52,008 nucleotides of DNA, from contig JBOHDE010000003.1 of the NCBI GenBank assembly GCA_050699035.1, positions 1 to 52,008 on the forward strand, read 5' to 3'. Source of the stretch: Nocardioidaceae bacterium. GTDB lineage: Bacteria > Actinomycetota > Actinomycetes > Propionibacteriales > Nocardioidaceae. Of the stretch, positions 8,330 to 52,008 are shown in pieces. The notes under the pieces are model-generated. The model ran no database searches and had not been told where the DNA came from. It worked only from the letters and a program-made list of their open reading frames with translations. Positions within the stretch are counted from its first letter, which is position 1. Each line of letters opens with the position of its first letter. Position numbers and translations under genes: made by a program.

Positions 8330-8381
8330 CCGGGATCCATCGCGTCGAGGTTGCGCGTATGTCCGGGATCCCTCGCCGTCC

Positions 8382-8690
8382 GGTGGCGACTCACCCCCAC
8401 ACGTACCCGTGCCGTTCCCGGAGTCTCGGATCGGGGACCCGTGCGCGGCCCATGTCGAGGTCTAGTGGTCCGGTCGTCGCCGTCTGCGCGCACGTGTTCC
8501 CAGATCGCATGGCTCGCGGCCCGGCGGCTGCATTCCGGGAACACGTGCTCCCGGACTGCAATCGCGGACGTCCGAACGTGGCGACTCACCCCCACGCGTA
8601 CCCGATCATCCCCACGCCTGCAGGAGTGGGGATGTTTGGGAACGGCACGGACCCGTGCCGTTCCGGAGTCCCGGATCGGGGGCAGTGGGC
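8382..8690. repeat. repeat-rich purH-folD spacer: split ~55-bp direct repeat plus nested hairpins
   Basis: GTGGCGACTCACCCCCAC occurs at 8383-8400 and 8578-8595. CCCGTGCCGTTCC(C)GGAGTC(T/C)CGGATCGGGG occurs at 8406-8436 and 8652-8681. A 12-bp perfect inverted repeat, GCACGTGTTCCC / GGGAACACGTGC, lies at 8490-8501 and 8537-8548. Copy 2 carries extra hairpins. Confidence 0.7.
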
Positions 8691-8711
8691 CGGCTGGCAG
8701 ACTGTCCTCCC

Positions 8712-20657: not shown

Positions 20658-20666
20658 CCGACCGCG

Positions 20667-31351: not shown

Positions 31352-31453
31352 CGTCGCCACCGGTCGTCGGACCGCCGATCCGGGCACTGGGGAAACAATT
31401 GTGCGTTGTGGGGGACGAGAGTTCCCCCAGCGACCGACGAGCGACTGCTCGGG

Positions 31454-32104: not shown

Positions 32105-32215
32105 GGGGGTTGCCTTTCGAGGAGAGTGCCGGAAGTCCCAGGCGCGGTGAGACTAGTGGCCCCGGGCGGACCGTGTGGTCGCTTTGGGGAAACTCGGTCG
32201 AGACTGCGCCGCGGT

Positions 32216-34383: not shown

Positions 34384-35676
34384 ATGGAGTTCTTCGACGA
34401 GCCGGTTGACCTACAGCCCTGGAGGCTGTCGGACGCCGAGGTCGTCGACGCGATGGATGCCGCGTACGAGGCGGCGACGCGGGCGCATGCGGTGGCCCTG
34501 CGGCTGCTCGTCGAGGTCGACAGGCGCGGGCTGGCGAAGGCGGCCGGGGCTTCGTCGACGCAGGCCTGGCTGCAGCAGCGGCGGCGGTTCCGTCCTCAGC
34601 AGGCCAGACGTGACGTGGAGCTCGCCCGGTTGATCGACATCCGCAACCCCGCGGACCCCGAGTCCGACGGGCGGGTCGAGGGAGCGGCAGTCGGCGCGGC
34701 GCTGGACGCGGGTGCGATGACGGTGGATCAGGCCGGAGTGGTCGCGATCGCGCTGTCGGAGCTGCCGGAGGACCTGGCGGCCGGGCCGCGGGTGCAGGCG
34801 GAGGAGATCCTGGTCGCCGAAGCGGGTCGGCTCAGCCCGGCCGATCTGTGCCGGGCCGGACATCAGGTCCTGGCGCAGGTCGACCCCGACGCCGCCGACC
34901 GAACACTGGCCGAACAGCTCGCCCGTGAGGAGCGCGAGGCCTACCGACTGAGGTCGGCCACCAGGTGGGCGGACGGCCACGGGTCGGTGCATTACCGGGT
35001 TCGAGTGCCGAACGCCGAGGACGCACACATCTGGCCGGTGCTCGATGCCCTCGCTCGGCCGACGCCGTCAGACGGCAGCGGGCAGCGCGACGAGCGGACC
35101 GGACGGCAGCGGATGGCCGACGCCGTCGTCGAGACGTTCCGCCGGGTCAGCCTCGACGGCGGGCTGCCCACGAACGGCGGCGACCGCCCACGAGCGACTA
35201 TCACCATGGAGCTCGAGACGCTGCGGTCGGGCCTCGGCGCCGCCAGCAACGTCGACACCGGCGACCTGCTGTCCGCCGACGCCGCCCGTCGGCTCGCCTG
35301 CGACGCCCAGGTCATCCCGGTCGTGCTCGGCGGAGCCGGCCAGGTCCTGGATGTCGGCCGGGCCCGCCGAACTTTCGACGGTCCAGTCCGCACCGCGGTC
35401 ATCGTCCGCGACGGTGGCTGTGTGCATCCCGGTTGTGACCGTCCGGCCCGCTGGTGCGACGTGCATCACGTGATCCCGTGGTGGGCCGGCGGCGACACCA
35501 GCCTCGCCAACGGCGTCCTTCTCTGCGGGTTCCATCACACGCTGTACGACAACGGCACCTGGCACCTCAGTTTCGCCGCCGACGGCATCCCGGAGGCCGT
35601 TCCACCGACCTGGGTCGACCGCGCCCAGCGGCCTATCCGCAACACTCGGTTCAAACGACGACCCGACGCCGCCTGA
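34384..35676 (+). CDS. DUF222 / HNH endonuclease-domain protein (REP13E12-like)
   Basis: The N-terminal DUF222-type region has Ala/Arg-rich helices. The C-terminal HNH reads DGGCVHPGCDRPARWCDVHHVIPWWAGGDTSLANGVLLCGFHHTLYDNGTW. Confidence 0.85.
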   Translation: MEFFDEPVDLQPWRLSDAEVVDAMDAAYEAATRAHAVALRLLVEVDRRGLAKAAGASSTQAWLQQRRRFRPQQARRDVELARLIDIRNPADPESDGRVEGAAVGAALDAGAMTVDQAGVVAIALSELPEDLAAGPRVQAEEILVAEAGRLSPADLCRAGHQVLAQVDPDAADRTLAEQLAREEREAYRLRSATRWADGHGSVHYRVRVPNAEDAHIWPVLDALARPTPSDGSGQRDERTGRQRMADAVVETFRRVSLDGGLPTNGGDRPRATITMELETLRSGLGAASNVDTGDLLSADAARRLACDAQVIPVVLGGAGQVLDVGRARRTFDGPVRTAVIVRDGGCVHPGCDRPARWCDVHHVIPWWAGGDTSLANGVLLCGFHHTLYDNGTWHLSFAADGIPEAVPPTWVDRAQRPIRNTRFKRRPDAA

Positions 35677-36035: not shown

Positions 36036-36716
36036 TCAGGTGGGGCGCACCGGCACGGACCGCGGGAGCAGGTCGGCGATCGCTCGCTCAAGTCCGGCGG
36101 TGCCGGTGTCGACCACGGTCAGCGGGAGGCCGAGGGCGTCGGCGGCCTGCTGCGCGAGCCGGTGCAGCTCCGGGTCCGGCTCCTGGGCCAGCCAGACCAC
36201 CCGGGTGTAGTGGCCGAAGTAGTCGTCGCGCAGCTCGGGATGGCGGTCGAGCCCGAGTTCCTGGAGCACGGTGCGGCCGAACGAACGCACCAGAAAGTCG
36301 GTGAGGACGTAGGTACCGGGCTGCTCGTCGAAGAAGCGCTGCAACTGAGCCGGACCCGCGTACACGTCGTAGCAGTGCAGACCGGCCAGCCGCCGCAGGT
36401 TGAGCCGGTCGCACACCTCGTCGAGGGCGCCGTACGTGCCACAGTCGGCGTAGCCGATCGCCACTGTCGGGTAGCGGCGCAGCAGCGACGTCGCGAGCGT
36501 CTCCACCTGCCCGGCGATGAGCTGGGGCCGGTTGTGCAGCAGCGGAGGCAGCGGGTGCACGTCGACGGGCCACGCGTGCCGGTGGACCAGCGCCGTGGCC
36601 GGCTGGGCGAGCGCGCCGCAGGCAATCAACCCGATGCGGGCAGCGACCTCAGCCGGGGAACGCGAGCTGGTCGACGAACTTGTCGTTGAAGTCAGCACGG
36701 TCGGAGAGCTCGACAT
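36036..36716 (-). CDS. DUF1638 domain protein (unknown function, associated with corrinoid methyltransferase loci)
   Basis: 226 aa. IGLIACGAL ... HPLPPLLHNRP ... IGYADCGTYGALD ... LHCYDVYAG ... VLTDFLVRSF matches my memory of DUF1638. Start is the ATG at 36716 or the GTG at 36698. Either overlaps the upstream gene end (36649) by 50-68 nt. Confidence 0.65.
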   Translation of the reverse strand: MSSSPTVLTSTTSSSTSSRSPAEVAARIGLIACGALAQPATALVHRHAWPVDVHPLPPLLHNRPQLIAGQVETLATSLLRRYPTVAIGYADCGTYGALDEVCDRLNLRRLAGLHCYDVYAGPAQLQRFFDEQPGTYVLTDFLVRSFGRTVLQELGLDRHPELRDDYFGHYTRVVWLAQEPDPELHRLAQQAADALGLPLTVVDTGTAGLERAIADLLPRSVPVRPT

Positions 36717-38574
36717 AGCGCACCTCCTCCAGCAGCGTCATCGCGCCGGCCCGCTCGCGCAGGCTGAGCAGCGTCATCTTCGCGCCTTCGCCGGCGACAT
36801 TGCCGGCCGAGACGATCCGCAGCACGGGCAGCTTCGGGACAAGCCCGATCCGGACGGCGGACGCGGGGGACAGGTAGCTGCCGAACGACCCGGCGAGCAG
36901 CACCTGTTGCACGTCGCCGGCCTCGGCGCCGAGCTCCTCGAGCAGCAGCGACCAGCCGGTCGCGATTGCCGCCTTCGCGAACTGCAGCTCGCGGACATCC
37001 CGCTGCGACAGGTAGACGGTGTCCGCAGCGTCCTCGGCCCCGTCCGGCCGGAACAGCACGAAGACCCGTTCCTCGCCGATCTTGGCCAACCGCCCAGCCA
37101 GCGTCGGAGCGACCGACGCCGCGACGTCATCGGGCACGAACCGACCGGAGCTGTCGAGCAGCCCTACCTTCACCAGCTCGGCGACGGCGTCCACGAGCCC
37201 TGAGCCGCACAGCCCCGCCGGGCTGATGTCGCCGATCACCTGCAGCTCGACGTCGTCGCTGAGGCGTACGACCTCGATCGCGCCCTCGGCCGCCCGCATC
37301 CCGCAACGGATCGCGCCGCCCTCGAACGCGGGCCCGGCCGGTGCGGCCGTCGACACCGTCCGTTCACCGTCGCCGAGCACGATCTCGCAGTTGGTGCCGA
37401 CGTCGATGAACAGCCGCATCCGCTTGTCGCGGTCCATCCCGGTCGCCAGCATCCCGGCCACGATGTCGCCGCCCACATAGGCACCTAGCGCCGGGAGCAC
37501 CGCCGCCGGTGCGCCGGGGTGGATCAACACCCCCAGGTCGGACGCGAGTACGCCGGACACGGTCGCCGACGACATCACGAACGGTGCGACGCCGATCGGC
37601 TCGGGGTCGATGCCCAGAGCCAGGGCAACCATGGTGGCGTTGCCGGCGAGCGCGACCTCGTAGACCTCGTCGGGCTCGACTCCACCCTCTTTGCAGACCG
37701 CCTGCGCAAGCTCGTCGAGGGTCGCGTGGGCGAGCCCGCGCAGCCGGTCGAGCGCGTCGGGGTCCATCATGGTGGCGCTGATCCGGGTGATGACGTCCCC
37801 ACCGAACGGCTGCTGCCGATTGAGCATCGACTGCACCGCCACCGGCGTGCCCGTCGAGACGTCGAGCAGGGTCGCCACCACCGTCGTCGTACCCAGGTCG
37901 AACGCGATCGCGTGCCGCCGCGCCGACGTGTCGCCCGGCTCCACGTCGATCAGCACGTCGTCGACCACCACCGCGGTCACCTTGAAGTCCGCCGAACGCA
38001 GCACGGTGGGCAGCCGCCGTAGCGCGTGCAGGTCGACGGTCAGCTCCAAGTCCTCGATCGCGCCGAGCAGCCGTACCAGGTCGGTCCGCTGGTCGGACAG
38101 CGTCGGCTCGGCCAGCTCGACGTACCGCTTCTGCACGGCGGGCCGGAGGATCACCTGCCGCCCGACGCCGACCGTCGCCGCCTTGGGACGGGTGACGAGC
38201 GGCGGCACCTCGACCCGGAGGTCGTTCGTGGCCTGGGCGAGGCAGGCCAGCCGCCAGCCGGCGTTGAGCTGCTCACCGGTGAACGAGCGGACGTCGAGCC
38301 GCGAGACCGGCACCGAGCCGGTCAGGATCTGCACCTTGCACTTCTTGCAGGTCCCGTGCCCCCCACAGGTCGAGTCGATGGCGATGCCATTCCAGCTGGC
38401 CGCGTCGAAGACAGTGACCCCCGGCGGCACCCGGACCGACCGCTCGGCCGGCGCGAACGAGAGCTCGACCCGGCCCGTCCCGTCGTGCGCGACCAGCTCG
38501 CCCGTGGTGCTCTGGTCCGCGGGGGGTTCGATCAACCCCTCACGGGCGAGATGGCTGAGATCGGTCTCGCTCAC
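36649..38574 (-). CDS. reductive activator of corrinoid proteins (RACo/RamA-like): N-terminal [2Fe-2S] ferredoxin domain plus ASKHA ATPase domain
   Basis: The start is trimmed to the GTG at 38574 (GTGA overlap with the upstream stop). The Cys motif CGGHGTCKKCKV ... C is as in RACo ferredoxin domains. The ASKHA core reads [17 protein letters not shown] ... GGDVITRI ... FIDVGTNCEIVLG ... PAFEGG. Confidence 0.8.
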   Translation of the reverse strand: MSETDLSHLAREGLIEPPADQSTTGELVAHDGTGRVELSFAPAERSVRVPPGVTVFDAASWNGIAIDSTCGGHGTCKKCKVQILTGSVPVSRLDVRSFTGEQLNAGWRLACLAQATNDLRVEVPPLVTRPKAATVGVGRQVILRPAVQKRYVELAEPTLSDQRTDLVRLLGAIEDLELTVDLHALRRLPTVLRSADFKVTAVVVDDVLIDVEPGDTSARRHAIAFDLGTTTVVATLLDVSTGTPVAVQSMLNRQQPFGGDVITRISATMMDPDALDRLRGLAHATLDELAQAVCKEGGVEPDEVYEVALAGNATMVALALGIDPEPIGVAPFVMSSATVSGVLASDLGVLIHPGAPAAVLPALGAYVGGDIVAGMLATGMDRDKRMRLFIDVGTNCEIVLGDGERTVSTAAPAGPAFEGGAIRCGMRAAEGAIEVVRLSDDVELQVIGDISPAGLCGSGLVDAVAELVKVGLLDSSGRFVPDDVAASVAPTLAGRLAKIGEERVFVLFRPDGAEDAADTVYLSQRDVRELQFAKAAIATGWSLLLEELGAEAGDVQQVLLAGSFGSYLSPASAVRIGLVPKLPVLRIVSAGNVAGEGAKMTLLSLRERAGAMTLLEEVRYVELSDRADFNDKFVDQLAFPG

Positions 38575-39469
38575 GTCGCGCCTGACTCCCGCAAGGTTGC
38601 TTGCTTGGCCCGGTGCGCGGCGATCCAGGAGCCGCCCCACTCGTCGTGGCCGAGCAGGAGGTCGGCGGCCTTGACGGCTTCGACGATCTCCGGAGTACGG
38701 GCGTCCATGATCGCGCTGGTCAGCCCCGCGGTCATCGCCATCGGCAGGTACGCCGAGCCGATGGCGTGGCGGCCCGGCATGCCGAACGACACGTTCGAGG
38801 CGCCGCACGTCATGTTGAGCCCGTACGTCTCGCGGATCCGGCGGATCGTCTCCAGCGTCGTCTGCACAACCGACGTGTCGGCACCGATCGGCATCGCCAA
38901 CGGGTCGATCACGATGTCGGCCAGCGCGATGCCGTACTCCTTGGTCGCGACGTCGACGATCTTGCCCACCAGCTCCAGCCGCTTGTCGGCGTCCATCGGG
39001 ATCTCGTCGGCGTCGTTGGGCAGTGCGATGACGGCTGCGTCGTACTTCTTGACCAGCGGGAGGATTGCCGCCATCCGGTCGTCCTCGGCCGTGATCGAGT
39101 TGACCAGCGCACGGCCCTGGTACGTCGCGAGCCCGGCCTCGAGCGCCTCGACGACCGACGAGTCGATGCAGATCGGCAGGTCTGTCAGCGACTGGATGAG
39201 TGTGATGGCCCTAGCCAGCAGGTCCGCCTCGTCGGTCAGGGGTACGCCCATGTTGACGTCGAGTACGTCGGCGCCACCGGCCACCTGCGCGGCGACGTCA
39301 CGCTCGATCGCCGACAGGTCGCCGGCCCGCAGCTGGTCCTGGAAGATCCGCCGGCCGGTGGGGTTGATCCGCTCGCCGATCAGGCAGAACGGCCGGCCGT
39401 GGCCGATCACCACCTCGCGGGTGGCCGACCGGAGCGTCGTCTCCTGCAGTGCCGTCTGCACGTGCGTCG

Positions 39470-39473
<4 letters not shown>
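38571..39473 (-). CDS. methyltetrahydrofolate:corrinoid methyltransferase (pterin-binding domain, MtgA/MeTr/MetH-module-like)
   Basis: 300 aa. LIGERINPTG ... GADVLDVNMG ... ICIDSS ... ALVNSI ... IDPLAMPIG ... CGASNVSFGMP is the pterin-binding barrel pattern. Confidence 0.85.
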
Positions 39474-40131
<658 letters not shown>

Positions 40132-40135
<4 letters not shown>

Positions 40136-40899
40136 GCAGCGCCCTCCTTGTGAGTGCGACGACGGAGCAGGCGCGACAGGGAGTCGGCCTGCTCGACCAA
40201 CAGCTCGCCGATGTCGTCGAGCTGGTCCCCGAGACGGGCACTGGGGCCCGAGACTCCGAGTGCCGCGATGGTGTGTCCGTCGCGGCCGTGGACCGGCGCC
40301 GCCACGGCGTCGAGTCCGACTTCGAGCTCCTCGCGGGTCACGGCGTAGCCGTGCCGGCGAATGTCTCGAACTTCCTTGTCCAGCTGGGATCTGCTGGCCA
40401 CCGTCTGCGGGGTCGGCCGCTCCAGGTCGCCGTCGGGCAGGTCGAGGGAGTCGTACGCGTACAGCACCTTGCCGAGGGCGGAGCAGTGCGCTGGGACGTC
40501 GACCTCCAGCCAGTCGCGTGCGCCGAGCACGAACGTCGCGTTGACCTGGGCGATCTGCACGACGGTCTCGCCGCGGGGGATGGCCAGGTTGACCGTCTCC
40601 CCGGTCTGGGCGCCCAGCTTCTGCAGCACCGGGTCGGCCAGTCGGGCGACCTGCGTCCACGGGTCGTGCCGGGCGGCGTACAGGGCGAACAGTGGCCCCG
40701 ACACGAACGAGCCGTGCGAGTCGCGCTCGAGCAGGTGGTTGCGCTCGAGCGCGGTGAGCAGCCGCGACGTCGTCGACCGGGCCAGCCCGGTCTCGTCGGC
40801 GAGGTCGGTGAAGCTGATCGGCTCGTCGGCCTGCACGACCAGGGACAGCAGCTGGGCCGCCCGGTCGACGGCCTGCGCGCCGTTCGCGGTGCTGGTCAT
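40132..40899 (-). CDS. IclR-family transcriptional regulator (first gene of the corrinoid operon)
   Basis: AVDRAAQLLSLVVQADEPISFTDLADETGLARSTTSRLLTALE (wHTH) plus the IclR effector domain (GYAVTREELEVGLDAVAAPV). Confidence 0.85.
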
Positions 40900-40939: not shown

Positions 40940-40956
40940 GTTCCATAACATGGAAC
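40940..40956. promoter_or_regulatory. candidate operator GTTCCAT-AAC-ATGGAAC in the iclR / mttB divergent promoter region
   Basis: Perfect 7-3-7 palindrome in the 114-bp spacer. A CATAAT -10-like hexamer follows at 40966-40971. AAGGAGG lies 7 nt upstream of the mttB-family ATG. Confidence 0.4.
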
Positions 40957-41013
40957 CCGACTCCCACATAATGAGGTTAGGATCTCGATCAGGCCGGGTC
41001 AAGGAGGTAGTCG

Positions 41014-42453
41014 ATGTTTCGCAATGCCATGCCGCGCTACGAGGTGCTGTCCGCCGAGGCGATGGAGACGCTCGACAAGGGCTGGCGCCGAATCGTCAGC
41101 GAGATCGGCGTGGAGTTCATGTCCGACCGGGCGCTCGACCTGTTCCGTCAGGCCGGGCAGCGGGTCGAGGACAACACGGTGTTCCTCGACCCCGATTTCG
41201 TGCTGGCCCAGGTCGCGAAGGCGCCACGCGAGTTCGACGTCGCCGCCCGCAACCCCGACAACACCCTCCACATCGGCGGCGACGCGATGGCGTTCGGCGC
41301 GGTCTACGGCCCACCGTTCGTCCGCCAGGGCGACGTGCGGCGCGACGCGACCATGGAGGACTTCCGGTCCTTCACCAAGCTGGCGCAGTCCTTTCCCGTA
41401 CTCGACTCCGCGGGGGGCGTGATCTGTGAGCCCAACGACACGCCGTTGGACTCACGGCACCTCGACATGACGTACGCCCTGCAGACCCTGACCGACAAGG
41501 TCTACATGGGCAACGTGGTGTCCGGGCCCAACGCCGTCGACACCATCGAGATGAGCTCGATTCTCTTCGGTGGCAGGGAAATCATCGAGCAGACGCCGGT
41601 GACCATCTCGCTGATCAACTGCAACTCGCCGCTGCGGTGGGACGACCGGATGCTCGACGCGCAGTTCGAGTACAGCGCCGCCAACCAGCCGGTCGTGCTC
41701 ACGCCATTCCTGCTGATGGGCGCCATGTCCCCGGTCACGATCCCGGCCGCGCTGGTGCAACAGATGGCCGAGGCGCTGTCCGGCATCGCGTTGTCGCAGC
41801 TGATCCGTCCCGGGTGCCCGGTGATCTTCGGGTCGTTCCTCTCCAACATCGACATGCAGTCCGGCTCGCCCTGCTTCGGCACGCCGGAGTCCGGGATCGG
41901 GCTGCTCTGCACCGGCCAGATCGCACGCCACTTCGGGCTGCCGTTCCGGTCCGGCGGCGCGATGACGTCCTCCCAGGTGCCCGATGCGCAGGCCGGCTAC
42001 GAAGCGCTGATGACGTTGCTGCCGACGTTCCTCGCCGGCGCCAACTGGGTGATGCACTCCGCCGGGTGGCTCGAGGGCGGCCTGGTCGCGGGGTACGAGA
42101 AGTTCATCGTCGACGTCGAACTGCTGCAGATGATGCGGGTGGAGTTCACCCCACTGGAGATCGACGAGGCGTCGCTGGCGTTCGACGCGCACACCGAGGT
42201 CGGCCACGGCGGCCACTTCCTCGGTGCGATGCACACGATGGAGCGGTTCCGCACCTGCTTCTACCGGCCGATGCTGTCGTCGTCGGACAACTACGAACGG
42301 TGGATGAAGAACGGCGCCGCGGATACCGCCGACCGGGCGGCGACGATCTACCAGCAGCGGCTCGACGAGTACGAGGCCCCGTCGATCGACGACGCGGTCC
42401 GGGCCGAGCTGGAGGAGTACGTCGTACGGCGCCGCAAGGAGCTTGGCGACTGA
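41014..42453 (+). CDS. MttB-superfamily methyltransferase lacking pyrrolysine (quaternary amine:corrinoid methyltransferase; glycine betaine is the contextual substrate guess)
   Basis: 479 aa. The N-terminus YEVLSAEAMETLDKGWRRIVSEIGVEF ... ALDLFRQAGQRV and the TIM-barrel length match the trimethylamine methyltransferase family. The ORF is uninterrupted, with no in-frame TAG. Confidence 0.85.
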   Translation: MFRNAMPRYEVLSAEAMETLDKGWRRIVSEIGVEFMSDRALDLFRQAGQRVEDNTVFLDPDFVLAQVAKAPREFDVAARNPDNTLHIGGDAMAFGAVYGPPFVRQGDVRRDATMEDFRSFTKLAQSFPVLDSAGGVICEPNDTPLDSRHLDMTYALQTLTDKVYMGNVVSGPNAVDTIEMSSILFGGREIIEQTPVTISLINCNSPLRWDDRMLDAQFEYSAANQPVVLTPFLLMGAMSPVTIPAALVQQMAEALSGIALSQLIRPGCPVIFGSFLSNIDMQSGSPCFGTPESGIGLLCTGQIARHFGLPFRSGGAMTSSQVPDAQAGYEALMTLLPTFLAGANWVMHSAGWLEGGLVAGYEKFIVDVELLQMMRVEFTPLEIDEASLAFDAHTEVGHGGHFLGAMHTMERFRTCFYRPMLSSSDNYERWMKNGAADTADRAATIYQQRLDEYEAPSIDDAVRAELEEYVVRRRKELGD

Positions 42454-42456
42454 TCG

Positions 42457-42690
42457 TCAGAAGATCGTCGCGAGCATGACCAGCAGTAGTGGAGCGACGA
42501 AGCTCGCCAGCACCAGCCACGCGACCACCCGGTGCGAACCCTTGTCCGACGACAACGACCCGGCCATCGCGACCAGGGCGCCCTCCTCGGTGTTGCGGTC
42601 GAGGCCCATCAGCTGAGCGTCGCTCGGCACACCGTGCAGCGCGTGTGCGTGCCCGGTTGGGTCGAATTCGGCGTGGTCGGGGTCCGGCAC
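42457..42690 (-). CDS. possible small His-rich protein with a C-terminal TM anchor
   Basis: Tail of a longer spurious ORF. Candidate starts are the GTG at 42690 (77 aa) or the ATG at 42609 (50 aa). It ends in HRVVAWLVLASFVAPLLLVMLATIF. There is no RBS, and it sits between the mttB-family stop and the purU stop. Confidence 0.25.
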   Translation of the reverse strand: MPDPDHAEFDPTGHAHALHGVPSDAQLMGLDRNTEEGALVAMAGSLSSDKGSHRVVAWLVLASFVAPLLLVMLATIF

Positions 42691-42794
42691 GTCATCGATG
42701 CTAGCCCGCGACCTCCGGCCACTATCTTCTCGGCGCGAAGGGTCCCGACATTCGCGCAACCTCGGCGCGAAGGGTCTGGGCGTCGTGCAGCGGG

Positions 42795-43679
42795 TCAGCG
42801 GAAGACGACGGTGCGGTGGCCGTTGAGCAGGACCCGGCTCTCGGAGTGCCAGCGCACGGCGCGCGACAGTACCTGGCTCTCCACGTCGCGACCGGCGGCG
42901 GCCAGCTGGGCGGCGCTCAGCCCGTGGTCGACGCGGGCGACGTCCTGCTCGATAATCGGGCCCTCGTCGAGGTCTGCGGTCACGTAGTGCGCCGTCGCCC
43001 CGATCAGCTTGACGCCTCGGTCGAACGCCTGGTGGTACGGCTTTGCCCCCTTGAAGCTCGGCAGGAACGAGTGGTGGATGTTGATCGCCCGCCCCTCGAG
43101 TCGCTTGCAGGTGTCGTCGGACAGCACCTGCATGTAGCGGGCGAGCACGACCAAGTCGATATCGAGCTCGTCGACGAGTGCCAGCAGCCGGGCCTCGGCC
43201 TCGGGCTTGTTGTCGGCCGTCACCGGGAGGTGGTGGAAGTCGATGCCGTGCGCCGCGGCGAGCGGGGCGAAGTCCTCGTGGTTGGAGACGATCGCGGGCA
43301 CGTCGATCTGCAGCGACCCGGTGCTCCACCGGAACAGCAGGTCGTTGAGGCAGTGCCCGAACCTCGACACCATGACCAGCGTCCGGTACGGCGCGGACGC
43401 GTCCCACAGCTGCCAGGTCATGGCGTACGACGCCGCGACGCCCGCGAACGCCTCCTGCAGCGACGCGAGCGTGTGCCCCGGCTCGAAGGTCTCGAAATGC
43501 ACCCGCATGAAGAAGCGGTCCTCGATCCGATCGTCGAACTGCTGGCTCTCGAGGATGTTCCCGGAGTGCTGGACGAGGAAGCCCGACACGGCGAACACGA
43601 TGCCGGGGCGGTCCGGGCAGACGATCGTCAGCACGTACTCCGGATTGGTCACCGAAACCTCCTGGGTACGTTGCGTCAT
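42795..43679 (-). CDS. purU: formyltetrahydrofolate deformylase
   Basis: The ACT domain (VLTIVCPDRPGIVFAVSGFLVQHSGNILESQQF) is followed by the formyltransferase core (NIHHSFLPSFKGAKPYHQA ... GATAHYVT.DLDEGPII). Confidence 0.9.
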   Translation of the reverse strand: MTQRTQEVSVTNPEYVLTIVCPDRPGIVFAVSGFLVQHSGNILESQQFDDRIEDRFFMRVHFETFEPGHTLASLQEAFAGVAASYAMTWQLWDASAPYRTLVMVSRFGHCLNDLLFRWSTGSLQIDVPAIVSNHEDFAPLAAAHGIDFHHLPVTADNKPEAEARLLALVDELDIDLVVLARYMQVLSDDTCKRLEGRAINIHHSFLPSFKGAKPYHQAFDRGVKLIGATAHYVTADLDEGPIIEQDVARVDHGLSAAQLAAAGRDVESQVLSRAVRWHSESRVLLNGHRTVVFR

Positions 43680-43691
43680 CGAGAACTCAGT

Positions 43692-43704
43692 TTGCGATAC
43701 GCAA
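43692..43704. promoter_or_regulatory. candidate operator TTGCG-ATA-CGCAA between purU and the second iclR gene
   Basis: Perfect palindrome in the 49-bp divergent spacer. Confidence 0.4.
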
Positions 43705-43728
43705 CACGATCTGCGCTACTGTCTCGTA

Positions 43729-44502
43729 ATGAGCAACACGGTCGAGGCACCCAGCACCGTGCAGTCGGTCGACCGGGCCGTCACCATTCTCGAGATTCTG
43801 GCCCGCAACGGCGAGTCGGGTGTCACCGAGATCGCCGCCGAGCTCGGCGTGCACAAGTCCACGGCCTTCCGGCTGGTCGCGGCCCTCGAGCAGCGTGGAC
43901 TGGTCGAGCAGGCCGGCGACCGGGGCAAGTACCGGCTCGGGGTCGGCATCTTGCGGCTGGCCGGCGCGACCACGGCCCGGCTCGATGTGGTCCAGGAGGC
44001 CCGGCCGGTCTGCCGCAAGCTGGCCGCAGACACCGGCGAGACCGTCAACATCGCCGTCCTCTCCGAGAACTCCGCGCTCTACCTCGACCAGATCGCCGGC
44101 TCGTCGGCGCTGCAGCCGCACAACTGGGTCGGCCAGCACATCCCGCTGCACGCCACGTCCAACGGCAAGGTCTTGCTGAGCGGGCTCCACCAGGACGAGC
44201 TGAGCCAGGTCCTGCGCTCGCTGCGTTCCTACACCGAGACCACGATCACCTCGAAGGCCAAGCTGCGGCGCGAGCTCGAGCAGGTCCGGCAGCGTGGGTA
44301 CGCCGTGGCGATCGACGAGCTCGAGGTCGGGCTGACCGCACTCGCGGCGCCGATCCACAACGCGCACGGGGACGTGATCGCGTCACTGAGCGTGTCCGGC
44401 CCGAGCTTCCGGCTGACGCCTGAGGCGGTCGAGTCGGCCGTGCCCACGCTGGTCGAGGCCGCCGCCGAGGTGTCGAACCGGCTGGGCTGGGGCGTCCGTT
44501 GA
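43729..44502 (+). CDS. IclR-family transcriptional regulator
   Basis: SVDRAVTILEILARNGESGVTEIAAELGVHKSTAFRLVAALE plus GYAVAIDELEVGLTALAAPI. The start is trimmed to the ATG at 43729. Confidence 0.9.
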   Translation: MSNTVEAPSTVQSVDRAVTILEILARNGESGVTEIAAELGVHKSTAFRLVAALEQRGLVEQAGDRGKYRLGVGILRLAGATTARLDVVQEARPVCRKLAADTGETVNIAVLSENSALYLDQIAGSSALQPHNWVGQHIPLHATSNGKVLLSGLHQDELSQVLRSLRSYTETTITSKAKLRRELEQVRQRGYAVAIDELEVGLTALAAPIHNAHGDVIASLSVSGPSFRLTPEAVESAVPTLVEAAAEVSNRLGWGVR

Positions 44503-44593
44503 CCGACTGGCCGAGCTCGCCGAGCAGCTACTTTGGGTGATCGGGTGGCGCTGCTCAGCGAATCGCTTGACGGACCCCCCTGACCTGACCATT

Positions 44594-44645
44594 GTTGTTG
44601 CGTAGAACACAAAGAGTTGCGCAACGTGCAACGCCGTGCGGCAAC
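44594..44645. promoter_or_regulatory. cluster of TTGC/GCAA half-sites upstream of betB (includes the palindrome GTTGCGCAAC at 44616-44625)
   Basis: GTTGCG (44598), GTTGCGCAAC (44616-44625), GTGCAAC (44626-44632) and GCGGCAAC (44638-44645). The half-site matches the purU/iclR palindrome. Confidence 0.35.
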
Positions 44646-44659
44646 TCGTAGGAGGAGCG

Positions 44660-46129
44660 GTGCCCGACATCTTTGTGCATGGCCGTTGGGAGAGCGCGCG
44701 CGACGGTGGGCGCCGCGAGATCCGCTGCCCAGCCGACGGGAGCCTGGTCGCCGAGGTCGACGAGGCCGGCCCCAAGGACACCGCGGAGGCGATCGAGAGC
44801 GCGCGCACGGCGTTCGACGACGGGCCCTGGCCGGGCACGCCGGCCGCCGAGCGCGGAGCCCTGCTGGGGCGGGTCGCCGACCTCCTCGAGCGCGACAAGG
44901 CCGAGGTGGCCCGCGCCGAGTCGCTCGACACCGGCAAGCGCCTGGTCGAGAGCGAGTACGACGTCGACGACGTGGTCGGCGTCTTCCGGCACTACGCCCG
45001 GGTCGCCGGCGAGGACGCCGGGCGGGTCGTGGACACCGGGCGGGCGGACGTCGTCAGCCGCATCGTGCACGAGCCGGTCGGCGTCTGCGGTCTGATCACG
45101 CCGTGGAACTATCCGCTGCTGCAGACCGCGTGGAAGGTGGCGCCGGCGCTGGCGGCCGGCAACACGTTCGTGCTCAAGCCCAGCGAGCTCACGCCGTCGA
45201 CCGCGATCGTGCTGATGCGTCAGCTCGCCGAGGCCGGCCTGCCGGACGGTGCCGCCAACCTCGTCCTCGGCGCGGGAGCGCAGGCGGGCGCACCACTGGC
45301 CGAGGACCCACGCGTCGACCTGGTGTCGTTCACCGGCGGGCTCGAGACCGGCAAGCGCATCATGGCCACGGCCGCCGGCACGGTGAAGAAGGTCGCGCTC
45401 GAGCTCGGCGGCAAGAACCCGAACGTCGTGTTCGCCGACGCCGACCCCGAGACCGCCCTCGACTTCGCACTGACCGCCGTCTTCCTGCACTCCGGGCAGG
45501 TCTGCTCGGCCGGTGCCCGGCTCGTGGTCGAAGAGTCGATCCACGACCAGCTCGTTGACGAGATTGTCAAGCGGGCAAAGAAGATCCGGCTCGGCGGACC
45601 ATTCGATGACGACGCCGAGACCGGGCCGCTCATCTCGGCGGCTCATCGCGACAAGGTCGAGGCGTTCGTCGCGGACGGCATCGCCGCCGGCGCCGTACTC
45701 CGTTGTGGGGGCGAACGACCCGCCGCACCTGCACTCGTCGACGGTTTCTACTACCCTCCGACAGTGCTTGACGGTTGTGACCGCACGATGAGCGTCGTGC
45801 ACGAGGAGTCGTTCGGCCCGGTGCTGACGGTCGAGACGTTCGGCACCGAGGACGAGGCGGTGGCGATCGCGAACGACAGCCACTTCGGGCTGGCCGGCGC
45901 GGTCTGGACCGACAACGCGGGCAAGGCCGAGCGGGTGGCCGCCCGGCTGCGGATGGGCACGGTGTGGATCAACGACTACCACCCGTACGTCCCGCAGGCC
46001 GAGTGGGGCGGCTACAAGCAGTCCGGAGTCGGCCGTGAGCTCGGCCGGGCCGGGCTGGACGAGTACCGCGAGACCAAACACGTCTGGCACAACGTGCGGC
46101 CCACACCACAACGGTGGTTCGGCGGCTGA
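44660..46129 (+). CDS. betB: betaine-aldehyde dehydrogenase (ALDH family)
   Basis: AGGAGG lies 4 nt upstream of the GTG at 44660. ALDH motifs: ITPWNYPLL, FTGG.ETGK, LELGGKNP, and the catalytic Cys in HSGQVCSAG. Sits directly upstream of betA. Confidence 0.85.
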   Translation: MPDIFVHGRWESARDGGRREIRCPADGSLVAEVDEAGPKDTAEAIESARTAFDDGPWPGTPAAERGALLGRVADLLERDKAEVARAESLDTGKRLVESEYDVDDVVGVFRHYARVAGEDAGRVVDTGRADVVSRIVHEPVGVCGLITPWNYPLLQTAWKVAPALAAGNTFVLKPSELTPSTAIVLMRQLAEAGLPDGAANLVLGAGAQAGAPLAEDPRVDLVSFTGGLETGKRIMATAAGTVKKVALELGGKNPNVVFADADPETALDFALTAVFLHSGQVCSAGARLVVEESIHDQLVDEIVKRAKKIRLGGPFDDDAETGPLISAAHRDKVEAFVADGIAAGAVLRCGGERPAAPALVDGFYYPPTVLDGCDRTMSVVHEESFGPVLTVETFGTEDEAVAIANDSHFGLAGAVWTDNAGKAERVAARLRMGTVWINDYHPYVPQAEWGGYKQSGVGRELGRAGLDEYRETKHVWHNVRPTPQRWFGG

Positions 46130-46177
46130 GCGCACGCAGGCACGACTGCCCGCGAACCACCACCAGAGAGGAGACGG

Positions 46178-47853
46178 ATGACCGAGACAGACGTCGACTT
46201 CGTCATCGTGGGCGGTGGCTCGGCCGGCTGCGCCCTGGCGAACCGGCTCAGCGCCGACCCGGGCAACCGCGTGCTCGTGCTCGAAGCCGGCCGGTCCGAC
46301 TTCGTCTGGGACCCGTTCATCCACATGCCCGCCGCGCTGCCGATCCCGATCGGCAACCGGCTCTACGACTGGAAGTACGAGTCGGAGCCCGAGCCGCAGA
46401 TGGGCGGTCGCACGATCTACCACGCCCGCGGCAAGGTGCTCGGCGGTTCGAGCAGCATCAACGGGATGATCTTCCAGCGCGGCAACCCGCTGGACTACGA
46501 GCGGTGGGCCGCCGACCCGGGCATGGAGACGTGGAGCTACGCACACTGCCTGCCGTACTTCAAGCGGATGGAGACCTGCCTGGCCGGCGCCGACGCCTGG
46601 CGCGGGGCCAGTGGACCGCTGGTGCTCGAGCGCGGTCCGGCGACGAACCCGTTGTTCGGTGCGTTCTTCGAGGCCGCCAAGCAGGCCGGCTACCCGCTGA
46701 CCGACGACGTCAACGGCTACCGCCAGGAGGGCTTCGCGCCGTTCGACCGCAACGTGCACCGCGGCCGCCGGCTGAGTGCGGCGCGGGCCTACCTGCACCC
46801 GGTGATGGGCCGCAAGAACCTCACCGTCCGGACGCTCGCGATGACCACCAAGGTGCTGTTCGAGGGCACCCGCGCGGTGGGGGTCACCTACACCCGCGGC
46901 CGGCGTGAGCACACGGTCCGCGCGGGCGAGGTCATCCTCTGCGGCGGCGCCATCAACTCGCCGCAGCTGCTGCAGCTGTCCGGTGTCGGCAACGCGGACG
47001 ACCTGGCCGGCCTGGAGATCGACGTCGTCGCCGACGTACCCGGCGTCGGCGAGCATCTGCAGGACCACCTCGAGGTCTACATCCAGTACGCCTCCAAGCT
47101 GCCGGTGTCGATCGCGCCCGGGCTGAAGTGGCGCAACCGGCCACGGGTCGGCGCCGAGTGGCTGTTCCTCCGCAAGGGGCTCGGCGCCACCAACCACTTC
47201 GAGGGCGGCGGCTTCGTCCGCAGCAACGACGACGTCGACTACCCGAACCTGATGTTCCACTTCCTGCCGATCGCGATCCGCTATGACGGCACCGCGCCGA
47301 CCAAGGGGCACGGCTACCAGGTGCACATCGGGCCGATGTACTCCGACGCCCGTGGCACCGTCAAGATCACCTCGACCGACCCGCGCGACCACCCGGCGCT
47401 GCGCTTCAACTACCTCTCCACCGACCAGGACCGCCGGGAGTGGGTCGAGTCGGTCCGGGTCGCGCGCAGCATCCTCAACCAGCCCGCGTTCGAGCCGTTC
47501 AACGACGGCGAGCTGTCACCGGGGCCCCAGGTCGAGACCGACGAGCAGATCCTCGACTGGGTCGCCAAGGACGCGGAGACCGCACTGCACCCGTCCTGCA
47601 CGGCCCGGATGGGCACCGACGACCTGTCCGTGCTGGACCCCACCACCCTGCGCGTGCACGGCGTCGACGGCCTCCGGGTCGTGGACGCGTCGTCGATGCC
47701 GTACGTCACCAACGGCAACATCTACGCGCCGGTCATGATGCTGGCCGAGAAGTCGGCCGACCTCATCCTCGGCAACGCACCACTCGAGCCGTCCCATGCG
47801 CCGTACTACCGCTACCGCGACGGCAGCCCCCTCTATCCCACCGGAGGCAACCC

Positions 47854-47857
<4 letters not shown>
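46178..47857 (+). CDS. betA: choline dehydrogenase (GMC oxidoreductase)
   Basis: [19 protein letters not shown] ... [13 protein letters not shown] ... the HPSCTARMG region ... VVDASSMP. 559 aa. Confidence 0.9.
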
Positions 47858-48914
<1,057 letters not shown>

Positions 48915-48918
<4 letters not shown>

Positions 48919-50909
48919 CCGTCACCGGCGCCCGACCATCGACTCGGGCCGAGACCCCGCCACCCGAGCCGCCCCCGAAGCGGCGGCTCGGCCTGACCCT
49001 CGGCATCGTGGCCGTCGGCTGGATCGTGGGCTGGGCGATCTGGCGTGGCCAGGCGACGCTGGAGATCGGCGTCGCCGAGCTGACCGACGTGCACCGCTGG
49101 CTGCTCGAGCTGCGCGACGACTTCGACGCGGCCCGCACCAGCAACTTCGTGTTCCTGTACGTCATCGACCCGATCAGCTCGGCGCTCGACTGGGTCGTGA
49201 CGTTCCTGCAGGAGCTGGTCAGCCAGGCCGCCTTCCCGCGCCCGGTGCCGGAGATCGGCTGGCTCGGCGTGCTCGCGATCCTGACCTGGGTCGCGTACGC
49301 GCTGGCCGGCCTGCGGTCGGCACTGCTGGTCGCGGTCAGCCTGCTGCTGTTCGGGTTCTTCGGCTACTGGGCGGAGAGCCTCGACCTGCTGATCATCACC
49401 GCGGTGTCGGTCGGGATCTGCTGCCTGGTCGGTCTGCCGCTCGGCATCTGGATGGCCCGCAGCAAGGCGGCGACGAACGCCGTCACGCCGGTGCTCGACC
49501 TGATGCAGACCATGCCGTCGTTCGCCTACCTCACCCCGCTGGTCCTGGTGTTCGGTATCGGACCGGCCTCGGCGGTCGTCGTCACGCTGATCTACGCGTT
49601 GCCGCCGCTGGCCAGGATCACCGCGCACGGCATCCGCAGCGTGTCACCGACCACTATCGAGGCCAGCCGCTCGATGGGGGCGACCCGACGTCAGGTGCTC
49701 CGCAAGGTGCAGCTGCCGATGGCGAAGCGGACCATCGTGGTCGGCATCAACCAGTGCACGATGGCGGCGCTGTCGATGGCCACCATCGCGGCGCTGATCG
49801 ACGGCCCCGGCCTCGGCCAGCCGGTGATGCAGGCGCTGCAGAGCCTCGACATCGGCGGCGCGTTCGTCAGCGGCCTGGCGATCGTGATCATGGCGATCAT
49901 GCTCGACCGGACGACCACGGCCGCCAGCGAGCGGGCCGAGACGGCGGCTCGCGCAGGCGCCGACAACGCGCGGCGGCGTCGGCAGATCCTGGCCGGGTCC
50001 GCCGTCGTGGTGGCCGTCGCCGTCTACTTCTCCCGCACCTACCAGGTCCTGGCCGAGTTCCCGGGCAGCCCCGATCTCGGCACCCCGCTCGCCGACGGCG
50101 TGCGCAGTGCCACCGAGTGGGTGACCTCCACCATCGAGCCGGTCACCGAGGCGCTGAAGGACCTGGTCAGCTACGGGCTGCTCAACCCGCTGCAGGCGCT
50201 GATGGCCGACTCGCCCTGGTGGCTGATGGCGGCGGTGCTGCTGGCGGTGTCGTACCTGCTCGGCGGCTGGCGACCGCTGGTCAGCACCGCGGTCTGCCTG
50301 GCCGTGATCCTCGGCACCGGGCTGTGGAACGAGTCGATGAAGACGCTCACCACGACCGTCGTCGCCACCCTGCTGGTGATGCTGATCGCGGTCGTCATCG
50401 GCGTCTGGATGGGCCGCAACCGGCGGGCCGACGCGTTCGTACGCCCGTTCCTCGACGCGCTGCAGACGATCCCGCCGTTCGTCTACCTCGTACCCGCGCT
50501 CGCGTTGTTCGGCCCGACCCGGTTCACCGCGATCGTGGCGGCCATCGCGTATGCCACCCCCATCGCGACCAAGCTGATCGCCGACGGGATCCGGGGGGTC
50601 TCGCCGACGTCGGTGGAGGCGGCCCGGGCCTCGGGCACCACCGCGTGGCAGATGATCAGCAAGGTCCAGCTGCCGATGGCCAGGGCCGCTGTCGTGCTGG
50701 CCTCCAACCAGGGCCTGCTCTTCGTGCTGTCGATGGTGGTCATCGGCGGCCTGGTCGGCGGGGGCGGCCTCGGGTTCCTGGTGGTCACCGGCTTCTCGCA
50801 GGCCGAGGACTTCGGCAAGGGACTCGCCGCCGGGATCGCGATCACCGCGCTCGGAGTCATGCTCGACCGGATCACCCAGCACGCCGCCGCCCGTACCGGG
50901 CGCGCCTGA
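48915..50909 (+). CDS. fused tandem ABC permease (two OpuAB/ProW-like transmembrane domains in one 664-aa polypeptide)
   Basis: GTGA overlap with the ATPase gene. Two EAA-loop regions are present: [23 protein letters not shown] and [23 protein letters not shown]. Confidence 0.85.
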
Positions 50910-50923
50910 ATGAAGGAGACACA

Positions 50924-51898
50924 GTGACATACAAGACGACGAGAACTCTTCGCGTCGCAGCTATGACCGTGGTCGTCGGGCTCGGTCTCGCGGCCTGCGG
51001 CGGAGACATCGAGTCCGCCGGCGGCGGCGGCGGTGGTGACGGCGGCGGCGAGGAGTGCGGCCAGTTCGACATCGCCATCAACCCGTGGGTCGGCTACGAG
51101 GCATCGGCCCACGTGGTCGGCTACGTCGCGAAGTCCGAGCTCGGGTGCAACGTCGAGTACAAGAACCTCAAGGAGGAAGTTGCCTGGCAGGGCATGGGCA
51201 GCGACGAGGTCGACGTGGTGATCGAGAACTGGGGCCACCCGGACCTCAAGAAGAAGTACATCGAGGAGCAGAAGACGGCGCAGGAGGCCGGCTCCACCGG
51301 CAACATCGGCGTGATCGGCTGGTACGTGCCGCCGTGGATGGCCGAGAAGTACCCGGACATCACCGAGTGGGAGAACCTCAACAAGTACGCCGACATGTTC
51401 AAGACGTCGGAGTCCGGCAGCAAGGGCCAGCTGCTCGACGGCGACCCGTCCTTCGTCACCAACGACGAGGCCCTGGTGAAGAACCTCAAGCTCGACTACA
51501 AGGTCGTCTACGCCGGCAGCGAGGCGGCGCTGATCCAGGCGTTCCGGCAGGCGGAGAAGAACAAGGAGCCGCTGATCGGCTACTTCTACGACCCGCAGTG
51601 GTTCATGTCCGAGGTGCCGCTGGTGAAGATCAACCTCCCTCCGTACGAGGAGGGCTGCGACGCCGACCCGGAGAAGATCGCCTGCGACTACCCGGAGTAC
51701 GACCTCGACAAGATCGTCGCCACCGACTTCGCCGAGTCGGGCAGTCCTGCCTACGACCTGGTGAAGGCCTTCGAGTGGACCAACGAGGACCAGAACGTCG
51801 TCGCGTCTTACATCGCGCAGGACAAGATGGACCCGGAGGAAGCGGCCGAGAAGTGGGTCAAGGACAACCAGGACAAGGTCGACGCCTGGCTCGGCTGA
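50924..51898 (+). CDS. glycine betaine/choline-type ABC substrate-binding lipoprotein (OpuAC-like)
   Basis: GAAGGAG lies upstream of the GTG at 50924. Lipobox GLGLAAC plus a Gly-rich linker. NPWVGYEA ... ENWGHPD ... GWYVPPWM carries the aromatic residues typical of quaternary-amine binding pockets. Confidence 0.85.
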   Translation: MTYKTTRTLRVAAMTVVVGLGLAACGGDIESAGGGGGGDGGGEECGQFDIAINPWVGYEASAHVVGYVAKSELGCNVEYKNLKEEVAWQGMGSDEVDVVIENWGHPDLKKKYIEEQKTAQEAGSTGNIGVIGWYVPPWMAEKYPDITEWENLNKYADMFKTSESGSKGQLLDGDPSFVTNDEALVKNLKLDYKVVYAGSEAALIQAFRQAEKNKEPLIGYFYDPQWFMSEVPLVKINLPPYEEGCDADPEKIACDYPEYDLDKIVATDFAESGSPAYDLVKAFEWTNEDQNVVASYIAQDKMDPEEAAEKWVKDNQDKVDAWLG

Positions 51899-51947: not shown

Positions 51948-52008
51948 GCTTGTTCCAAGGCGGCACCGAGTACGGCGCCGACCCGGCCTGCCCCGATGAC
52001 ACCGACCT

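Follow-up and report, generated by a model that had tools for sequence, protein, structure and literature searches.

Our analysis of a 52,008-nt stretch of the genome of a Nocardioidaceae bacterium (contig JBOHDE010000003.1; the whole stretch is called the window below) suggests that the genes surrounding its mttB gene (41014-42453) form a conserved chromosomal cluster with which aerobic members of this family degrade choline and glycine betaine by a cobalamin-dependent route, a reading to which we give a probability of about two in three. The mttB gene encodes a non-pyrrolysine member of the MttB methyltransferase superfamily, is divergently transcribed from a corrinoid operon, and is followed by the formyl-tetrahydrofolate (formyl-THF) deformylase gene purU, a second IclR-type regulator gene and the operon betB-betA-opuAA-opuAB-opuAC. 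The strongest evidence for corrinoid betaine demethylation is a hole in the pathway: the array of genes in this window and its relatives contains the step from choline to betaine and the step from dimethylglycine to sarcosine, so the MttB/corrinoid system is the sole candidate in the array for the step from betaine to dimethylglycine.

In the proposed pathway choline or betaine would be imported by an OpuA/ProU-type ATP-binding cassette (ABC) transporter, and BetA and BetB would convert choline to glycine betaine. The MtgB-like MttB enzyme would then transfer one N-methyl group of betaine to the Co(I) form of the corrinoid protein, leaving dimethylglycine, and the pterin-binding methyltransferase would pass this methyl group on to THF, yielding methyl-THF (CH3-THF); corrinoid that has become oxidised to Co(II) would be re-reduced by the RACo activase, probably with the help of the DUF1638 protein. 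A methylenetetrahydrofolate reductase (MTHFR) resembling the S6MTHFR of Sphingobium would oxidise CH3-THF to methylene-THF (CH2-THF), and FolD and PurU (with Fhs in some relatives) would carry the one-carbon (C1) unit to formate. In relatives of the window the remaining dimethylglycine would be processed by a THF-dependent oxidase or dehydrogenase encoded right after opuAC.

Genes were called from third-position GC bias and named by Pfam, NCBIfam and Protein Data Bank (PDB) sequence searches, and the window proteins were compared by tblastn with 81 loci from genomes of Nocardioides, Marmoricola, Dactylosporangium, Geodermatophilaceae and Jatrophihabitans. The scope is the window and the 10-kb flanks of the relatives' loci, and the absences reported below hold for the window. 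All of the genes named in a preliminary description of this DNA were found by Pfam and NCBIfam matches where it had placed them. Its remark that the MttB system lies within 2 kb of the other catabolic genes holds for purU, whose stop is 341 bp from the end of mttB, and not for betB, which is about 2.2 kb away. The genes of the cluster are as follows.

30485-31351, plus strand: divergent MTHFR-family protein of 288 amino acids, proposed to oxidise CH3-THF to CH2-THF (the role of MetF2); weak match to Pfam MTHFR (27.9 bits)
36036-36716, minus strand: DUF1638 protein, encoded at the 3' end of the corrinoid operon (PF07796, 69.7 bits)
36649-38574, minus strand: RACo/RamA-type ATP-dependent reductive activase of corrinoid proteins (Fer2, RACo_linker, Raco_middle and RACo_C_ter domains)
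38571-39473, minus strand: pterin-binding methyl-corrinoid:THF methyltransferase (PRK07535, 313 bits against a cut-off of 259; PF00809)
39470-40135, minus strand: corrinoid (B12-binding) protein, MtgC-like (B12-binding and B12-binding_2 domains)
40132-40899, minus strand: IclR-family regulator 1 (IclR1), first gene of the corrinoid operon (HTH_IclR and IclR_C domains)
41014-42453, plus strand: non-pyrrolysine MttB-superfamily methyltransferase, proposed MtgB-like glycine betaine:corrinoid methyltransferase (PF06253, 626 bits)
42795-43652 (alternative ATG at 43679), minus strand: PurU, formyl-THF deformylase (TIGR00655, 338 bits against a cut-off of 286; ACT and Formyl_trans_N domains)
43729-44502, plus strand: IclR-family regulator 2 (IclR2; HTH_IclR and IclR_C domains)
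44660-46129, plus strand: betaine aldehyde dehydrogenase, BetB-like (Aldedh, 547 bits; TIGR01804, 591 bits)
46178-47857, plus strand: choline dehydrogenase BetA (TIGR01810, 833 bits against a cut-off of 732; GMC_oxred_N and GMC_oxred_C domains)
47854-48918, plus strand: ABC ATPase of the ProV/OpuAA/ChoV group (TIGR01186, 360 bits against a cut-off of 327)
48915-50909, plus strand: fused double permease of ChoW/ProW type, 664 amino acids (two BPD_transp_1 (PF00528) stretches; TIGR03416, 372 bits against a cut-off of 363)
50924-51898, plus strand: OpuAC/ProX-type substrate-binding protein (PF04069, 140 bits)

Conservation of the cluster

The association of these genes is not peculiar to the window. 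A complete corrinoid operon lies upstream of mttB in 68 of the 70 loci that have at least 6 kb of upstream sequence, and where the downstream sequence reaches 9 kb or more, 59 of 63 loci encode BetA no further than 10 kb past the MttB orthologue. The linkage is thus a trait that the family conserves, and chance does not explain it. In roughly 60 related genomes the whole set of MtgB-like enzyme, MtgC-like protein, pterin methyltransferase, RACo and DUF1638 accompanies betBA-opuA and purU. IclR1 adjoins mttB in all 81 loci, the DUF1638 gene is present in 70 of the 81, and PurU and IclR2 are encoded between mttB and BetA in most of them; in some relatives a BCCT transporter gene follows betA. 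The window MttB is 99% identical to a protein of a Propionibacteriales metagenome-assembled genome (MAG) and 82-88% identical to its counterparts in the Nocardioides, Marmoricola, Dactylosporangium, Geodermatophilaceae and Jatrophihabitans genomes, and no fewer than 591 sites across species-level genomes code for one of its relatives.

The preliminary description spoke of a catabolic island, which as a term for acquired DNA does not fit. The window has about 70% G+C and stays between 0.68 and 0.71 throughout with no compositional break, and the gene order is kept across genera and across the Nocardioidaceae, so we rejected a horizontally acquired island. The sole gene of mobile type, a DUF222/HNH gene inside the cluster (34384-35676), is an insertion peculiar to this strain; the related locus L002 does not have it. 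The host appears to be a Nocardioidaceae bacterium from soil or a cave and presumably has an aerobic lifestyle; the DNA runs that contain the window sequence are cave metagenomes, and none of the RNA runs checked for this organism contain it (the best soil metatranscriptomes share at most 8% of sampled words).

The step from dimethylglycine to sarcosine

Our case for a pathway hole depends in part on the gene that follows opuAC in relatives. Seventeen loci have at least 500 bp of sequence beyond opuAC, and in 14 of these the next gene encodes a dimethylglycine oxidase (a DAO-FAO_M-GCV_T protein); the relatives' oxidase matches Arthrobacter globiformis dimethylglycine oxidase (1PJ5) over its full length with 531 bits. 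Three genomes have no betBA here, and in them the oxidase gene stands directly after iclR2. The window itself ends 110 bp 3' of opuAC, and it is because of this truncation that the preliminary description saw no dimethylglycine gene; its statement that the fate of dimethylglycine is open was thus an artefact of the window end. The gene after opuAC varies between genomes, since in L004 (a Nocardioidaceae MAG with an MttB of 88% identity, and the closest relative with a long contig) the open reading frame (ORF) in this place, 20550-21437, appears by eye to be of the pyridoxal phosphate-dependent cysteine-synthase type and not a dimethylglycine oxidase. L003 has an electron transfer flavoprotein (ETF) subunit gene (17660-18439) after its dimethylglycine oxidase-like gene, which suggests an ETF-linked dehydrogenase there.

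The end of the window has some peculiarities of its own. The exact OpuAC protein is encoded on just one other contig (L001), that of a MAG assembled from the same strain, which breaks off at this spot too, 63 bp past the gene. L001, otherwise 99.85% identical, diverges from the window after position 51947; the last 61 bases of the window (51948-52008) are unlike L001, which ends in a G/C run, and a hairpin, GGCCACC-ACCC-GGTGGCC, lies just upstream of 51948. The minus strand of 51948-52008 encodes VGVIGAGRVGAVLGAALEQAGHRVV, which is like the N-terminus of a Rossmann-fold protein and points into opuAC. The divergence could stem from a join made in assembly, or else from a rearrangement.

As the preliminary description had noted, no oxygenase or betaine-homocysteine methyltransferase (BHMT) is recognisable in the window, where none of the scanned ORFs has a Rieske oxygenase domain or a BHMT-type (PF02574) domain. 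Its premise that an oxygenase or BHMT is the usual aerobic route is out of date, MtgBCD being by now a recognised aerobic route to betaine demethylation. Of 36 Rhodobacterales with mtgBCD, 22 have GbcAB as well, so the presence of gbcAB elsewhere in this genome would not by itself refute corrinoid demethylation.

The MttB-family methyltransferase

The protein encoded by mttB matches PF06253 (the MttB TIM barrel) over its full length, residues 3-478, whereas the model for true trimethylamine MttB, TIGR02369, gives 274 bits against a cut-off of 525. Its ORF of 479 codons is uninterrupted, so it contains no pyrrolysine (in-frame UAG) codon. Its PDB matches are 4YYC of Sinorhizobium meliloti (442 bits, 45% identity) and Desulfitobacterium hafniense MtgB, 2QNE (394 bits) and 9YCE (392 bits). 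The first of these, a putative alphaproteobacterial trimethylamine methyltransferase whose function is not experimentally established, is the closest solved sequence and has the motif HxAGWLEGG (with W352 and G356) in common with the window protein.

Four residues of D. hafniense MtgB, Y97, R312, H348 and F356, have been shown by mutation and crystal structure to bind betaine, and the authors of that work consider all four to be probably the least that betaine use requires (Picking et al. JBC 2026, PMC13080624). Three of the four are kept in the window MttB: Y97 (Y98 in the window numbering), R312 and H348. R312 and H348 bind the betaine carboxylate, and their retention favours an acidic quaternary amine over choline or trimethylamine, although the pair does not single out betaine among the acidic quaternary amines. 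We infer that glycine betaine is the substrate. The preliminary proposal that betaine is demethylated by the corrinoid pathway with conservation of the methyl group as CH3-THF is well supported by the comparative context.

Between mttB and purU is a 77-codon ORF (42457-42690, minus strand) with a hydrophobic C-terminal tail, VVAWLVLASFVAPLLLVMLATIF. It is called as a gene on another assembly and has no Pfam match; relatives in which purU directly follows mttB have no room for it.

The corrinoid operon

The operon divergent from mttB (36036-40899, minus strand) has the order iclR1, corrinoid protein, pterin-binding methyltransferase, RACo activase, DUF1638, and its genes are tightly joined. The start of the corrinoid protein gene overlaps the iclR1 stop as ATGA, the methyltransferase gene is joined to the corrinoid protein gene by another ATGA overlap, and the GTG start of the RACo gene overlaps the preceding stop as GTGA. 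The start of the DUF1638 gene is uncertain, its ATG at 36716 overlapping the 3' end of the RACo gene by 68 nt.

The corrinoid protein has the DxHxxG motif as DVHDIG at residues 101-106, and its top NCBIfam model is the glycine-betaine-specific MtgC_2, with 202 bits, which is below the 370-bit cut-off; it also matches MtbC (186 bits) and the Moorella protein 1Y80 (192 bits). By hidden Markov model (HMM) matching it thus looks like the corrinoid proteins of anaerobe-type methyltransferase systems. The pterin-binding methyltransferase fills the role of MtgA and is of the MtgD/MeTr type; its best PDB matches are the MeTr structures 2YCK and 1F6Y. The RACo activase has an N-terminal [2Fe-2S] ferredoxin domain with the Cys motif CGGHGTCKKCK.

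The betBA-opuA operon

The genes of the plus-strand operon (44660-51898) are coupled exactly as the preliminary description had it: betB and betA are 48 nt apart, betA and opuAA overlap by 4 nt as ATGA, opuAA and opuAB overlap by 4 nt as GTGA, and 14 nt separate opuAB from opuAC. We have moved the betB start from 44636 to the better GTG at 44660, which stands behind AGGAGGAG. TIGR01804 is the top model for BetB, although its 591 bits are under the cut-off of 668.6. No CBS domains were detected in the ABC ATPase (47854-48918). The ligand of the binding protein may be choline, betaine or a related amine, its matches being too weak to choose among them.

The MTHFR-like protein and other one-carbon genes

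Among solved structures S6MTHFR (7XG9) is by far the closest to the MTHFR-like protein, with 115 bits versus 22 for canonical MTHFRs when a single sequence is used, and 135 bits versus at most 33 for a profile of its family. S6MTHFR, from Sphingobium SYK-6, runs in reverse, oxidising the CH3-THF made by a THF-dependent demethylase (PMC11868366), and the window protein may work in this CH3-THF-oxidising direction too. The mycobacterial flavin-independent MTHFR was considered as a relative and rejected, there being no such entry among the PDB matches. The MTHFR-like gene is present in 66 of the 81 loci and is directly beside the DUF1638 gene in relatives; in the window about 4.7 kb of inserted unrelated genes part the two. 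Two of these inserts, the DUF222/HNH endonuclease gene and an 857-bp stretch (31352-32208) holding an ORF of 216-233 amino acids without a Pfam match, are absent from L002, which is 95% identical. Hydrolase and SDR genes also stand between the MTHFR-like gene and the corrinoid operon.

Other genes of C1 metabolism travel with the cluster to different extents. PurU, whose likeliest start in the window is the GTG at 43652 behind AGGAGG, is found in 62 of the 81 loci; Fhs (formate-THF ligase) is encoded between mttB and purU in 18, FolD next to the MTHFR-like gene in seven, and SdaA (L-serine dehydratase) in four. Two further ORF clusters of the relatives (C17 and C25) are antisense ORFs inside fhs and were discarded as spurious. 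The window has a purN-purH-folD group at 6102-9581, about 21 kb from the MTHFR-like gene, the intervening DNA carrying mdh, two sensor kinase genes, icd, galactose genes and a sugar ABC transporter; in several relatives (L035, L056, L057, L061 and L075) purH and folD come immediately before the MTHFR-like gene.

Two operator motifs

Three candidate operators were found in the intergenic regions of the cluster.

40940-40956: perfect palindrome GTTCCATAACATGGAAC, candidate IclR1 operator, in the 114-bp iclR1/mttB divergent region
43666-43705: GTTGCG/CGCAAC boxes including TTTGCGATACGCAAC (43691-43705), candidate IclR2 operator, in the purU/iclR2 divergent region
44597-44632: GTTGCG box (44597-44602) and palindrome GTTGCGCAACGTGCAAC (44616-44632), candidate IclR2 operator, upstream of betB

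The first of these, GTTCCATAACATGGAAC, overlaps a promoter-like site (hexamers at 40945-40972) and has no second match in the window. Its core, GTTCCA-N5-TGGAAC, occurs 62 times in the related loci when at most one mismatch is allowed, in every case within 300 bp of the start of iclR1 or mttB, and with up to three mismatches it is present in 66 of 80 mttB upstream regions. Further downstream, the mttB leader has a GTCAAG element (40998-41004 in the window) after the -10-like box and before the ribosome-binding site; it is kept in the mttB leaders of L002-L013 despite their varying length and sequence.

The second motif, GTTGCG/CGCAAC, is often palindromic and is 9- to 18-fold enriched upstream of iclR2, purU and betB. 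In the window there are two such boxes in the 76 bp of the purU/iclR2 region and three in the 158 bp upstream of betB, versus 0.7 per kb window-wide; in the relatives there are 7.8-10.5 boxes per kb ahead of purU and iclR2 and 14.9 per kb ahead of betB (with two or more boxes in 47 of 61 regions), versus a background of 0.85. GTTGCG boxes also precede the relatives' dimethylglycine oxidase gene. They are at background level upstream of the MTHFR-like gene and are essentially absent upstream of mttB in the loci.

A single operator for the whole region was therefore rejected, the iclR1/mttB palindrome being found nowhere else in the loci and GTTGCG being absent at mttB; the distribution suggests that control is split into two regulons. 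The two regulators are 35% identical to each other. It is likely that IclR1 binds GTTCCA-N5-TGGAAC and IclR2 binds the GTTGCG boxes, in which case IclR1 and its palindrome would control mttB and the corrinoid operon, and IclR2 with its boxes would control purU, bet-opuA and the relatives' dimethylglycine oxidase gene. With different operators, simple co-induction of mttB and the purU/bet modules as one unit is not expected. Since betB has its operator motif in common with purU, the bet-opuA operon seems to serve catabolism and not osmoprotection alone. Rfam and tRNA scans of the window gave no match, a cobalamin riboswitch included.

Evidence against betaine demethylation and alternative readings

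Several observations pull the other way from a corrinoid betaine pathway. The characterised MtgB shares just 40% identity with the window MttB, and position 356 is Gly, not Phe, in the window protein and in all 80 of its relatives; in D. hafniense MtgB the change F356L raises the Km from 0.88 to 734 mM (PMC13080624). A tryptophan four residues before G356, W352 in HSAGWLEGG, is invariant across the 81 MttB sequences and might substitute for the missing F356 in betaine binding. The MTHFR-like protein does not have the signature residues of type 4 MTHFRs, which are L48, R78, F215, C219 and P268, in loop b2-a3, helix a8 and loop b8-a11 (PMC11868366); by HMMER alignment it has S (S46), M (M76), M, I and T at these positions, and so belongs to a related but distinct subgroup, in whose actinobacterial members S46 is invariant and M76 nearly so. 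A dimethylglycine oxidase alone could account for PurU and the other C1 enzymes. The ligand matches of the binding protein are weak (52 of the 379 bits of the choline-binding model, and 89 bits to 4XZ6, its top PDB hit). Finally, mttB and the bet/purU genes differ in both operator motif and regulator and so possibly respond to different signals.

The MttB module may instead demethylate some different quaternary amine or methylated compound (proline betaine, carnitine and gamma-butyrobetaine are examples), with a betaine demethylase (GbcAB or similar) encoded elsewhere in the genome; we think this unlikely. The divergence from MtgB and the glycine at position 356 would be natural for an enzyme of different specificity, and R312, and often H348, are also kept by members of the family with other substrates (PMC13080624). 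Several MttB paralogues of unknown substrate are common in aerobes, and the module has its own regulator and an operator that is unique to iclR1/mttB. Yet the module has stayed next to betBA in 59 of 63 loci, and the conserved array has the preceding and following steps without any other candidate for the betaine demethylase. In addition, MttB retains Y97, whereas MtcB, MtpB, MthB and MtyB do not conserve the aromatic pair (PMC13080624), and the model that the corrinoid protein matches best is the one specific for glycine betaine.

It is also conceivable, though quite improbable, that the corrinoid genes are a split methionine synthase for which betaine demethylation is only a secondary or additional role. 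The MtgC and MtgD proteins of Ruegeria pomeroyi and Phaeobacter inhibens do serve both methionine synthesis and betaine demethylation, but no gene for MtgE, the PF02574 homocysteine-binding protein, is present among the scanned ORFs of the window, the operon is divergently paired with mttB and its IclR regulator and carries its own activase, and the corrinoid protein is best matched by the anaerobe-type MtgC_2, MtbC and Moorella 1Y80. That betBA-opuA serves purely to make and import betaine as an osmoprotectant, its place beside the corrinoid system being metabolically meaningless, is very improbable indeed: BetAB with a ProU/OpuA-type transporter is the classic osmoprotection set, but here the GTTGCG motif of betB recurs at purU and the relatives' dimethylglycine oxidase gene, that oxidase gene follows opuAC in most of the relatives in which its place could be seen, and the cluster is accompanied by Fhs, FolD, SdaA and the MTHFR-like gene.

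Comparison with known systems

The betaine-degrading cluster proposed here is most like the MtgBCD system of two aerobic marine Alphaproteobacteria, R. pomeroyi and P. inhibens (Mausz et al. PNAS 2025). When R. pomeroyi grows on betaine, MtgB, MtgC, MtgD, RamA, DUF1638, MetF2 and THF-linked C1 oxidation are induced, and MtgC and MtgD are required for this growth (PMC12478193); a mtgB1 gbcAB double mutant of P. inhibens does not grow on betaine (bioRxiv 10.64898/2025.12.19.695462). Like these bacteria, the window encodes an MtgB-type enzyme, a corrinoid protein, a pterin-binding methyltransferase, a RamA/RACo protein and DUF1638, and the two systems are alike in having a second MTHFR, THF-linked C1 oxidation that includes formyl-THF cleavage, linkage to BetAB, dimethylglycine and serine dehydratase genes, and, presumably, an aerobic host. 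They differ in that the host of the window is an actinomycete, its genes form one array with two IclR regulators where those of R. pomeroyi are scattered, and no MtgE or methionine synthase link is visible in the window. The marine aerobic MtgC belongs to a distinct CmuA-related clade (Mausz et al. 2025, PMC12478193), and the corrinoid protein of the window may differ from it, since by HMM matching it resembles the anaerobe type. In the marine surveys the sole mention of Actinomycetota is that they account for 5% of mtgC reads (PMC12478193).

The MtgB/MtgC/MtgA system of the anaerobe D. hafniense (Ticak 2014; Picking et al. JBC 2026, PMC13080624) has in common with the window a non-pyrrolysine MttB TIM barrel that aligns over its full length, the residues Y97, R312 and H348, and the adjacency of genes for a corrinoid protein and a methyl-corrinoid:THF methyltransferase, and its product, CH3-THF, would be the same. 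In addition to the low identity and the exchange of F356 for Gly, with the invariant Trp four residues earlier in the window family, the THF methyltransferases differ: that of the window is a MeTr/MetH pterin-binding protein (PF00809), and no MtgA-named chain is among its PDB matches. The host of the window, moreover, is presumably an aerobe that oxidises the methyl group.

The ligM-metF-ligH genes of Sphingobium lignivorans SYK-6 (Yu et al. 2025, PMC11868366) follow the same logic, an MTHFR and a formyl-THF enzyme accompanying a demethylase whose product is CH3-THF. There the partner demethylase is of the LigM type, whereas that of the window is corrinoid-dependent, and the type 4 residues of the SYK-6 MTHFR are changed in the window protein (L48S, R78M, F215M, C219I and P268T). 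The classical pathway from choline through betaine and dimethylglycine to sarcosine, exemplified by the A. globiformis enzyme 1PJ5, has its homologue in the relatives behind the operator motif of betB, and not within the window.

The cluster is thus a further example of the aerobic MtgBCD betaine demethylation published in 2025 and not a new principle; we found no paper that describes such a cluster in Actinomycetota. In our judgement it is as likely as not that the Nocardioidaceae, and soil Actinomycetota neighbouring them, have a corrinoid betaine demethylase that is dedicated, self-contained, compatible with oxygen and unlike both the anaerobe and the roseobacter types, with a W352/G356 pocket, an undescribed CH3-THF-oxidising MTHFR subgroup and a two-tier IclR circuit. 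The cluster raises the questions of how betaine could be bound without F356 and whether an S6MTHFR-like protein acts as a CH3-THF oxidase. If its role in betaine breakdown is confirmed, this would be a compact and fully clustered version of the pathway, genetically tractable in cultured Nocardioides, and aerobic cobalamin-dependent betaine demethylation would extend from marine Proteobacteria to the abundant Actinomycetota of soils and caves.

A study of permafrost found that Actinobacteriota express methylated-amine demethylation genes and that mtxB expression reaches into the more oxygenated palsa, and read this as anaerobic metabolism. Non-pyrrolysine mttB transcripts in oxic soils, now taken as a sign of anaerobic methylotrophy, would be read differently if the role of the cluster is confirmed, and the turnover of choline and betaine in soil would acquire a requirement for B12 or cobalt. 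Should the soil Actinomycetota indeed have the dedicated demethylase described above, much of the mttB-like expression reported from oxic soils as anaerobic methylotrophy (PMC10805028) would be aerobic betaine catabolism by Actinomycetota.

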